Positions 4,210 to 4,982 of a DNA stretch of 5,968 bases are shown here, in pieces. The position numbers and the translations under genes were made by a program. Every line of letters starts with the position of its first letter. Within the stretch, counting starts at the first letter, position 1. The notes under the pieces were generated by a model that worked only from the letters and a program-made list of their open reading frames with translations, ran no database searches and was not told the origin of the DNA. Location: IMG/VR virus record IMGVR_UViG_2585427761_000016, positions 1 to 5,968 of that record. One strand, 5' to 3'. Source of the DNA: a virus. Lineage: Duplodnaviria > Heunggongvirae > Uroviricota > Caudoviricetes.

Positions 4210-4787
4210 ACACGGCAGCGGAAGCCATTCGCGCCCTGTCGATGCAGATGCCGGGCTTTCGCCGTCAGATGAACGAAGGCTGGTACCAGATACGTATTGC
4301 CGGTGATGACACGGCACCGGAGGCGGTGTATGCCCGTCTTCACGAACAGCTGGGTGAGGGAACGGTCATCCACATTGTGCCGCGACTGGCCGGGGCCGGA
4401 AAGGGTGGACTGCAGATTGTGCTGGGGGCGGCAGCCATCGTGGGCTCTTTCTTCACGGCCGGAGGCTCGATGGCGTTATGGGGTACAGCCCTGAGTGCCG
4501 GTGGTTTTTCTGCCACCACGATGCTGTTTTCACTGGGGGCCAGCATGATACTGGGCGGTGTGGCCCAGATGCTGGCCCCGAAGGCAAAAACACCGGAGTA
4601 CAAAAGCACGGATAACGGTAAACAGAACACGTACTTTTCCTCCCTGGATAACATGATTGCCCAGGGTAACCCGATGCCGGTGCCTTACGGGGAAATGCTG
4701 GTTGGCTCCCGCCGTATATCCCAGGACATCAGTACCCGTGATGAAGGCGGGGGCGGAAAGGTCGTGGTTATCGGGCGGCAGGGGTAA
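4107..4787 (+). CDS. I: Tail tip assembly protein I (lambda gpI-like), 226 aa
   Basis: Translation MATTNAFSLASPPLARICLHGDLQRFGRRL...AEAIRAL...GWYQIRIAG...VIHIVPRLAGAGKGG.QIVLGAAAIVGSFFTAG...FSLGASMILGGVAQMLAPKAKTP...TDNGKQNTYFSSLDNMIAQGN.MPVPYGEMLVGSRRISQDISTRDEGGGGKVVVIGR matches my recollection of lambda gpI (ubiquitin-like N-terminus, Gly-rich hydrophobic middle). GGGAGAGG lies about 14 nt upstream of the ATG. Stop is TAA at 4785-4787. Confidence 0.85.
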   Translation: MATTNAFSLASPPLARICLHGDLQRFGRRLSLYVNTAAEAIRALSMQMPGFRRQMNEGWYQIRIAGDDTAPEAVYARLHEQLGEGTVIHIVPRLAGAGKGGLQIVLGAAAIVGSFFTAGGSMALWGTALSAGGFSATTMLFSLGASMILGGVAQMLAPKAKTPEYKSTDNGKQNTYFSSLDNMIAQGNPMPVPYGEMLVGSRRISQDISTRDEGGGGKVVVIGRQG

Positions 4788-4833
4788 AAAGAATAAAAAA
4801 ATCCCGCAGTGATCGCGGACAGGAACTGCGGGA
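4786..4833 (-). terminator. Putative Rho-independent terminator oriented on the minus strand
   Basis: Perfect 8-bp inverted repeat TCCCGCAG (4802-4809) / CTGCGGGA (4826-4833) with a 16-nt loop. On the + strand it is preceded by the A-rich tract 4786-4801 (AAAAAGAATAAAAAAA), so on the - strand the hairpin is followed by UUUUUUUAUUCUUUUU. It is not a + strand terminator because no T-tract follows it on +. The large loop lowers confidence. Confidence 0.35.
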
Positions 4834-4982
4834 GAGTTACGAAGATTAAGTGTAAGGAATTATTCTTATATCACGACAAAAAAATTAACGCAGAGAAATT
4901 ATACGCGCCACAGTCAGTTTGTGAAAATGTGAAGATATTCAGAATTTTTATGCCATTACCGGTTTTAACCAACAGGATTGTC

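Follow-up and report, generated by a model that had tools for sequence, protein, structure and literature searches.

We analyzed a 5,968-nt stretch of Caudoviricetes DNA (IMG/VR record IMGVR_UViG_2585427761_000016, positions 1 to 5,968), here called the window, and found on its minus strand, beside the tail assembly gene I, an element that is by its sequence a homolog of pasB, a small RNA (sRNA) gene of enteropathogenic Escherichia coli (EPEC). The family is published, but the allele in the window is apparently undescribed. By analogy with the EPEC gene, the element is very probably an expressed, Hfq-dependent, trans-acting PasB-family sRNA gene that is carried as a moron of the tail operon. 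A first-pass annotation, made from the bare sequence, had proposed an independent, non-coding minus-strand sRNA gene with its own promoter and terminator at this place, and the homology to PasB supports that proposal.

Homology to PasB of EPEC E2348/69

PasB (pathogenicity-associated sRNA B) was found in EPEC O127:H6 strain E2348/69, in which it is encoded by prophage PP6 (Pearl Mizrahi et al. 2021, PMC8550237). The RNA is 83 nt long and comes from the minus strand of NC_011601 (1466343-1466261; table S6, PMC8550237). It was detected by Northern blot with the probe AATCCCGCAGTGATCGCGGAGCT, its level was lower in a delta-hfq strain (log2 change of -6.8 and -2.4), and it had 37 partners by ligation and sequencing of interacting RNAs (RIL-seq) (PMC8550237). 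In the E2348/69 genome, the PasB interval lies between a tail assembly gene, which ends at 1466255, and gpJ, which starts at 1466496.

The unit in the window aligns with E2348/69 pasB along its entire length, at the same locus and in the same orientation. Both genes are in the I-J spacer of a lambdoid prophage, on the strand opposite the tail genes. The segment homologous to the 83-nt RNA (4795-4876, minus strand) has 72% identity to it (64 of 89 aligned columns), the longest exact word common to the two alleles is 25 nt, and 20 of the 23 bases of the Northern probe match window positions 4800-4819. By segment, the identity to E2348/69 is 96% in the upstream block, 93% from the -35 to the -10, 92% in the discriminator plus GCGTTA, 57% in the 5' body, 68% in the AAN/UCCUU/AUCUUC core, 30% in the stretch before the terminator, and 100% in the terminator 3' arm plus the U tract. 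The first-pass annotation had named conservation in homologous loci as a check on the unit. The promoter and the terminator of the window are 92-100% identical to those of E2348/69 and are nearly invariant across the variants described below.

The two genes are thus alike in their position, their strand relative to the tail operon, the TTCACA-16-TATAAT promoter, the upstream block, the terminator 3' arm with its U7 run, the UCCUU and AUCUUC elements, the AAN repeats, and a similar length. They are unlike in sharing just 72% of the 83 nt and in the terminator loop, where they differ by 5 nt, one loop being longer. Intermediate and hybrid alleles join the window allele to E2348/69 PasB. The published PasB 3' end aligns to the end of the U7 run (window 4795), and because it maps to the same U tract, the terminator picked out by the first-pass annotation can be taken as the real 3' end.

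A search of positions 4786-4925 against Rfam 15 at permissive thresholds returned noise only, the best matches being PK-repZ (18 bits) and VR-RNA (15.7 bits). Most likely this null result means that Rfam 15 has no PasB model, and it carries no weight against family membership.

Promoter and terminator of the unit

The promoter scan placed a -35 TTCACA at 4920-4925 (TGTGAA on the plus strand) and a -10 TATAAT at 4898-4903 (ATTATA on the plus strand), both read on the minus strand and separated by 16 nt, exactly as the first-pass annotation had them. This promoter, P1, matches 11 of 12 consensus positions and is the sole match of at least 11/12 on either strand of the window. The same 11/12 promoter, with the same -10 hexamer, is present in E2348/69, and the promoter is also found in strain MCJCHV-1.

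The terminator hairpin was found where it had been predicted (4802-4833, minus strand). However, folding gives it 9 bp with 14 nt in the loop, where 8 pairs and 16 nt had first been described. Its 5' arm (4833-4825, UCCCGCAGU) is paired with the 3' arm (4810-4802, ACUGCGGGA), and the minimum free energy fold adds two extra pairs within the loop. The energy of the hairpin is -15.7 kcal/mol (z = -4.06), and none of 200 shuffles folds equally well. The first-pass annotation, which had proposed this fold and a terminator scan as checks, was worried about the size of the loop. This concern falls away with a compact alternative hairpin reported by the terminator scan (4819-4803), which uses the same 3' arm and has 6 pairs and a 5-nt loop. 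The hairpin is followed by the U-rich tail U7-A-UUC-U5 (4786-4801, minus strand), in which the U7 run, seen already in the first pass, occupies 4801-4795. On the plus strand, the hairpin is followed by AGAGTTACG, without a T run, and therefore the terminator would serve the minus strand only. The RNA's 3' end, at about 4795, is 8 nt from the gene I stop codon (4785-4787). No minus-strand open reading frame (ORF) of at least 20 aa was found within the predicted transcript, as had been claimed.

Conservation and distribution

The unit was compared among 34 unique variants from IMG/VR and additional E. coli variants retrieved by BLAST, of which 16 divergent ones were compared. Of 5426 complete E. 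coli genomes, 1830 have a match to the unit. Among the 1838 matching E. coli records, 633 carry the window allele at an identity of at least 99%; one of them is CFT073, which has it at NZ_CP058222.1 3024010-3024154. Close relatives are found in Stx-converting and other lambdoid phages. In a contig scan limited to a single genome for each species, the terminator word turned up only in Escherichia albertii and a probable contaminant contig, and the scan showed no spread beyond Escherichia. A 3408-bp contig filed under 'Streptomyces flavalbus' (L125, NZ_JBHTEB010000006.1) holds a lambdoid-prophage segment with a hybrid pasB allele; this segment is almost certainly contamination of the Streptomyces assembly.

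Several body types and hybrids of them were seen on a conserved promoter-terminator frame. In the -10 element, the A at -11 is present in 16/16 variants and the T at -7 in 15/16, position -12 being T, C, A, or G; variant hexamers include CATAAT, AATAAT, and GATAAT, and L047, which lacks the T, has GATAAA. The -35 is promoter-like in most variants (TTCACA, TTTACA, TTGCAA), with a poor match in L126. The sequence GCGTTA (4891-4886), just downstream of the -10, is invariant in both the 34-variant and the 16-variant sets. The terminator 3' arm, CUGCGGGAUUUUUU, is likewise invariant among the 16 divergent variants, and 11 of 12 divergent variants retain a 7-bp stem core, CCCGCAG/CUGCGGG; the twelfth is able to fold into the inner hairpin. 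In L127 the outer terminator stem is broken and the inner hairpin is intact.

RNAalifold found the 7-bp terminator stem as the only shared structure and left the body single-stranded, and covariation analysis of the variants did not find a conserved 5' hairpin. A pairing of the 5' GCGUUA with a UAACGC upstream of the terminator was also considered. It is perfect in L127, L128, and L131 and absent in the E2348/69 class, and it was dropped.

Hfq motifs and a candidate seed in the RNA body

The body of the RNA holds an (AAN)3 tract, AAGAAUAAU (4859-4867, minus strand), which is a candidate ARN motif for the distal face of Hfq. The A positions of the tract are invariant or nearly so and the N positions vary by allele; the E2348/69 version is AACAAAAACAAC. 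Beside it lies the single-stranded core UCCUUACACUUAAUCUUC (UCCUU ... AUCUUC; 4841-4858, minus strand), which is a candidate seed and in part anti-Shine-Dalgarno. Within the body, no parts are better conserved among the 16 variants than UCCUU and AUCUU, and both are unpaired in the RNAalifold consensus. The unit therefore has the sequence features of an Hfq-binding sRNA, namely a U7 tail, an (AAN)3 tract with conserved A positions, and an unpaired UCCUU...AUCUUC core.

Points against the assignment

Several points weigh against reading the unit as an expressed, trans-acting PasB gene. Expression, size, Hfq dependence, and trans partners are known from the E2348/69 homolog alone. The IMG/VR variants were retrieved with the terminator sequence as the key, which inflated terminator conservation; the variants retrieved by BLAST offset this bias in part. 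RNAalifold showed no compensatory changes in the terminator stem, and because the stem is invariant, the structure is backed by conservation alone. Furthermore, no common target motif was reported for PasB (PMC8550237), which makes the assignment of the seed a guess. Lastly, TATAAT predicts a start that is about 15 nt upstream of the published 5' end, and this is also the case in E2348/69 itself.

The 5' end and the choice of promoter

The published PasB 5' end was drawn from RNA-seq coverage and not from a transcription start site experiment (PMC8550237). It corresponds to window position 4876, which gives an 82-nt RNA. From P1, the predicted primary transcript is 97 nt long (4795-4891, minus strand) and starts at the G of GCGTTA, the usual 7 nt after the -10. 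The first-pass estimate of roughly 100 nt would thus be right if P1 is used, but the published PasB end would shorten the RNA to 82 nt. Three readings of the 15-nt gap are 5' processing, a coverage end that was called too short, and a second promoter. Judged by its sequence, TTCACA-16-TATAAT is the promoter of the sRNA gene that we lean toward.

Another possible, if rather doubtful, explanation is that the same sRNA gene starts at about 4876-4874 from a weak promoter, P2, that is helped by CRP and has TAATTT as its -10 and no good -35. This hypothetical -10, of the form TAnnnT, is at 4882-4887 on the minus strand. It places the published 5' end 6-7 nt after it, and its T, A, and final T are kept in 16/16 variants while the middle bases vary (TAGTGT, TACAGT, TACCGT, TACTTT). 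Upstream of the promoter, at 4928-4943, there is a CRP-like palindrome, TGTGA-N6-TCAGA (TGTGAAGATATTCAGA), a hypothetical activator site. Its half-sites are invariant in the 16 variants despite a varying N6 spacer. CRP sites, TGTGA-N6-TCACA, are centered at -41.5 in class II promoters and at -61.5, -71.5, and so on in class I promoters. The center of the palindrome, 4935.5, is at -44.5 from the start predicted from TATAAT, which is unusual, and at -59.5 to -61.5 from 4876-4874, which nearly agrees with the -61.5 that is classical for class I. In the non-activating condition, PasB is more abundant and Spot 42, which cAMP-CRP represses, is less so. This pattern, as expected from CRP activation of pasB, is suggestive.

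Against P2, TAATTT matches only 3/6 consensus positions and has no -35, compared to 11/12 for TTCACA-16-TATAAT, and the -35 position of P1 is still promoter-like in variants that have changed it (TTTACA, TTGCAA). No other site in the window comes within one mismatch of the CRP pattern, for which 0.17 such matches are expected, but at least one occurs in 16% of shuffles, so that the CRP-like site is not significant alone. Also, the 5' end that P2 would explain comes from read coverage.

No statement on a PasB promoter, transcription start site, or CRP was found in Zhu et al. 2026 (bioRxiv 10.64898/2026.05.13.724894), and the CRP-like palindrome is mentioned neither there nor in Pearl Mizrahi et al. 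2021. The near-consensus promoter, the possible second, CRP-dependent promoter, the conserved AAN repeat, and the candidate seed are proposals absent from both PasB papers.

One variant, L132 (E. coli O157:H7 PV15-279, NZ_AP018488.1 2674360-2675060), has a PasB-like body and terminator, and its homology ends just upstream of GTTAATG. Here the TTCACA/TATAAT promoter is replaced by unrelated DNA beside sodC, and only a weak TAnnnT element is left. In L132, the question of which promoter matters has a natural test case.

Action in cis, chance motifs, and a disrupted gene

It is unlikely that the RNA acts mainly in cis, either as a complement of the I-J spacer or through convergent transcription that modulates the tail genes, especially J. 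The unit is opposite the late operon at every locus seen, and the late transcript would hold a perfect complement of all 82-97 nt. The first-pass annotation called the RNA antisense, and in terms of position this is correct, since what it faces is the late operon's untranslated I-J spacer. However, there is no coding overlap; the predicted RNA overlaps no coding sequence or ribosome-binding site in the window, and J starts 240-343 bp from the gene I stop in loci that are free of the insertion sequence (IS) next to the unit. In addition, the E2348/69 homolog has 37 trans partners on Hfq in the lysogen, and the unit has stayed in an apparently defective prophage, in which gene L is frameshifted and an IS has inserted and where control of tail genes would be pointless.

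Far less probable is that promoter-like and terminator-like motifs occur by chance in AT-rich DNA that is not transcribed. The spacer is 37% G+C, and a looser promoter scan (at least 9/12) found 2 matches compared to 0.9 expected, which is by itself not significant and no enrichment over shuffles. However, when the 195-nt spacer was shuffled 5000 times with its dinucleotides preserved, a promoter of at least 11/12 came up in just 0.62% of the shuffles, both elements are conserved among alleles whose bodies have diverged, and the homologous unit yields a detected RNA. The first-pass caution that such hexamers arise by chance is therefore not borne out for this promoter.

The first-pass alternative, in which the IS broke up a leftward gene and the unit is what is left of its 3' end and terminator, can be dismissed. 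The IS does abut the spacer at 4983, and a 70-aa minus-strand ORF (5083-4871) crosses the junction. However, the IS-free homologous loci have the same I-J sequence and no leftward gene, the IS in a second contig (L133) is 1261 bp long and went in as a simple insertion that duplicated 3 bp, and the crossing ORF begins inside the IS and is thus a junction artefact.

The IMG/VR contig L133 has an IS junction identical to that of the window. Its IS spans 4752-6012 and is flanked by the 3-bp target duplication GTC/ATC, and the original spacer and an intact gpJ continue beyond it. Since this is a simple insertion that leaves J intact, it broke no leftward gene and did not touch the sRNA unit or the CRP-like site. 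A megablast of 4700-5060 against complete E. coli genomes gave a match that extends to window position 4992, and in the matched genomes this sequence separates gene I from gpJ as a 343-bp spacer that bears no annotation. No complete E. coli genome among the 5426 has the spacer-IS junction; at best, 81% of 4700-5060 was covered.

Proposed mechanism and related systems

We propose that the PasB-family sRNA gene is a moron unit that a lambdoid prophage acquired in its untranslated I-J spacer, on the strand opposite the tail genes. Phage lambda itself has only a short I-J gap. Like a moron, the unit has its own promoter and its own terminator and lies between conserved phage genes. A sigma-70 promoter, most likely TTCACA-16-TATAAT (4925-4898), would drive leftward synthesis of an 82-97-nt non-coding RNA. 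The hairpin and U7 run of the terminator (4833-4795) would end this RNA 8 nt before the gene I stop is reached. By analogy with E2348/69, the RNA would be made from the silent prophage, stabilized by Hfq, and would pair in trans with mRNAs of the host and of the accessory genome. Its U tail may bind the proximal face of Hfq and the (AAN)3 tract the distal face, and the unstructured UCCUU...AUCUUC core could act as the seed. The adjacent IS would be a later, simple insertion that left the unit intact.

The target set of the window allele may differ from that of PasB, given that the body is 30-68% identical by segment. It is conceivable, though we would not expect it, that the window allele is a functionally distinct member of the PasB family, in which a conserved chassis of promoter, putative CRP site, Hfq module, and terminator has been moved by recombination and the seed body has been swapped. 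At least three body types plus hybrids are seen among the alleles. If this were true, the targets to which this one catabolite-responsive prophage sRNA is wired would differ from one E. coli lineage to another. Extraintestinal pathogenic E. coli such as CFT073 would then carry the window allele, and EPEC and enterohemorrhagic E. coli (EHEC) would carry the PasB/PasB-2 type.

Other sRNA morons of lambdoid prophages are PasA, PasC, PasD, AgvB, and AsxR (Tree et al. 2014, PMC4104026). Like the unit in the window, these encode short Hfq-binding RNAs with their own promoter and terminator, and they are extra DNA in prophage operons that is expressed from the lysogen. In contrast, they are found downstream of PR' and Q, beside the lysis and stx genes, and they have no sequence similarity to it. 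AgvB and AsxR of EHEC are sponges of core sRNAs (PMC4104026), a role that PasB is not known to have. Tree et al. 2014 and its supplements (PMC4104026) gave no usable EHEC 'EcOnc' sRNA in the tail region. By motifs only, the RNA also resembles ChiX and MgrR, with which it has in common a U-rich terminator tail, an internal ARN/AAN repeat, and a largely unstructured body. These two are reportedly among the class II Hfq-dependent sRNAs, as Schu et al. are said to have set out in 2015. A literature search with the terminator sequence found no literal match, and one on prophage Hfq sRNAs near a tail assembly protein found nothing relevant. RefSeq has no annotation in the I-J spacer of the loci examined, and so a reading of the raw sequence alone would have found a genuine regulatory RNA gene that standard annotation left blank.

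The published census of PasB

The survey of Zhu, Shabalina and Storz (2026, bioRxiv 10.64898/2026.05.13.724894) used a word size of 28 for Escherichia and Shigella, and its relaxed search left those genera out. It reported 1,158 PasB hits, with variants a few nucleotides apart, including the C27A variant PasB-2 (Zhu et al. 2026, bioRxiv 10.64898/2026.05.13.724894). The PasB-2 type was recovered among the IMG/VR variants as the L008 type. Because its longest word in common with PasB is 25 nt, the window allele cannot seed a word-28 BLAST from the E2348/69 query. It was probably missed by the survey and not counted among the PasB variants, which suggests that the published census would be an undercount.

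Gene neighborhood

Homologous-locus annotation and the ORFs show that what the window covers is the block of tail genes in a lambda-like prophage. It holds the tape measure gene (55-2430), gene M (2427-2756), gene L for a minor tail protein (2756-3455, frameshifted near 3307), gene K with a C40-peptidase, between L and I, and the tail assembly gene I (4107-4787, plus strand), which converges on the sRNA gene. The spacer from I to the IS (4788-4982, 195 bp) holds the whole sRNA unit. The IS3-family insertion sequence (4983-5968, plus strand), with a transposase annotated as IS3 family, begins at 4983 with the left inverted repeat TGTAGTGGCACAC..., and its left end is 57 bp upstream of the -35 of the sRNA unit.

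Gene L starts at 2756 and has a 1-nt insertion near 3307 compared to the homologous prophage in L001; its frame is broken at 3331 and resumes in another frame to 3455. Given this frameshift and the IS insertion, the window prophage looks defective. The sRNA unit is intact in this decaying prophage, which fits host retention of such sRNAs after the death of the phage.

In IS-free loci, the stretch from the pasB promoter to gpJ has a second strong hairpin with flanking T runs, which exists in two unrelated versions. One, at L001 5299-5336, looks bidirectional, and the other, at L003 5431-5454, scores as a plus-strand terminator. Candidate roles for it are the end of a plus-strand RNA, a stop for late read-through when antitermination is missing, or an insulator of pasB.

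Within the IS of the window, an IS911-like orfA is at 5055-5366. The Rfam family isrC (RF01387, 'Hfq binding RNA') has a full-length match of 150 bits at 5051-5173 on the plus strand, in the 5' part of orfA. The isrC family appears to describe the beginning of an mRNA for an IS3-family transposase, and not an independent sRNA gene.

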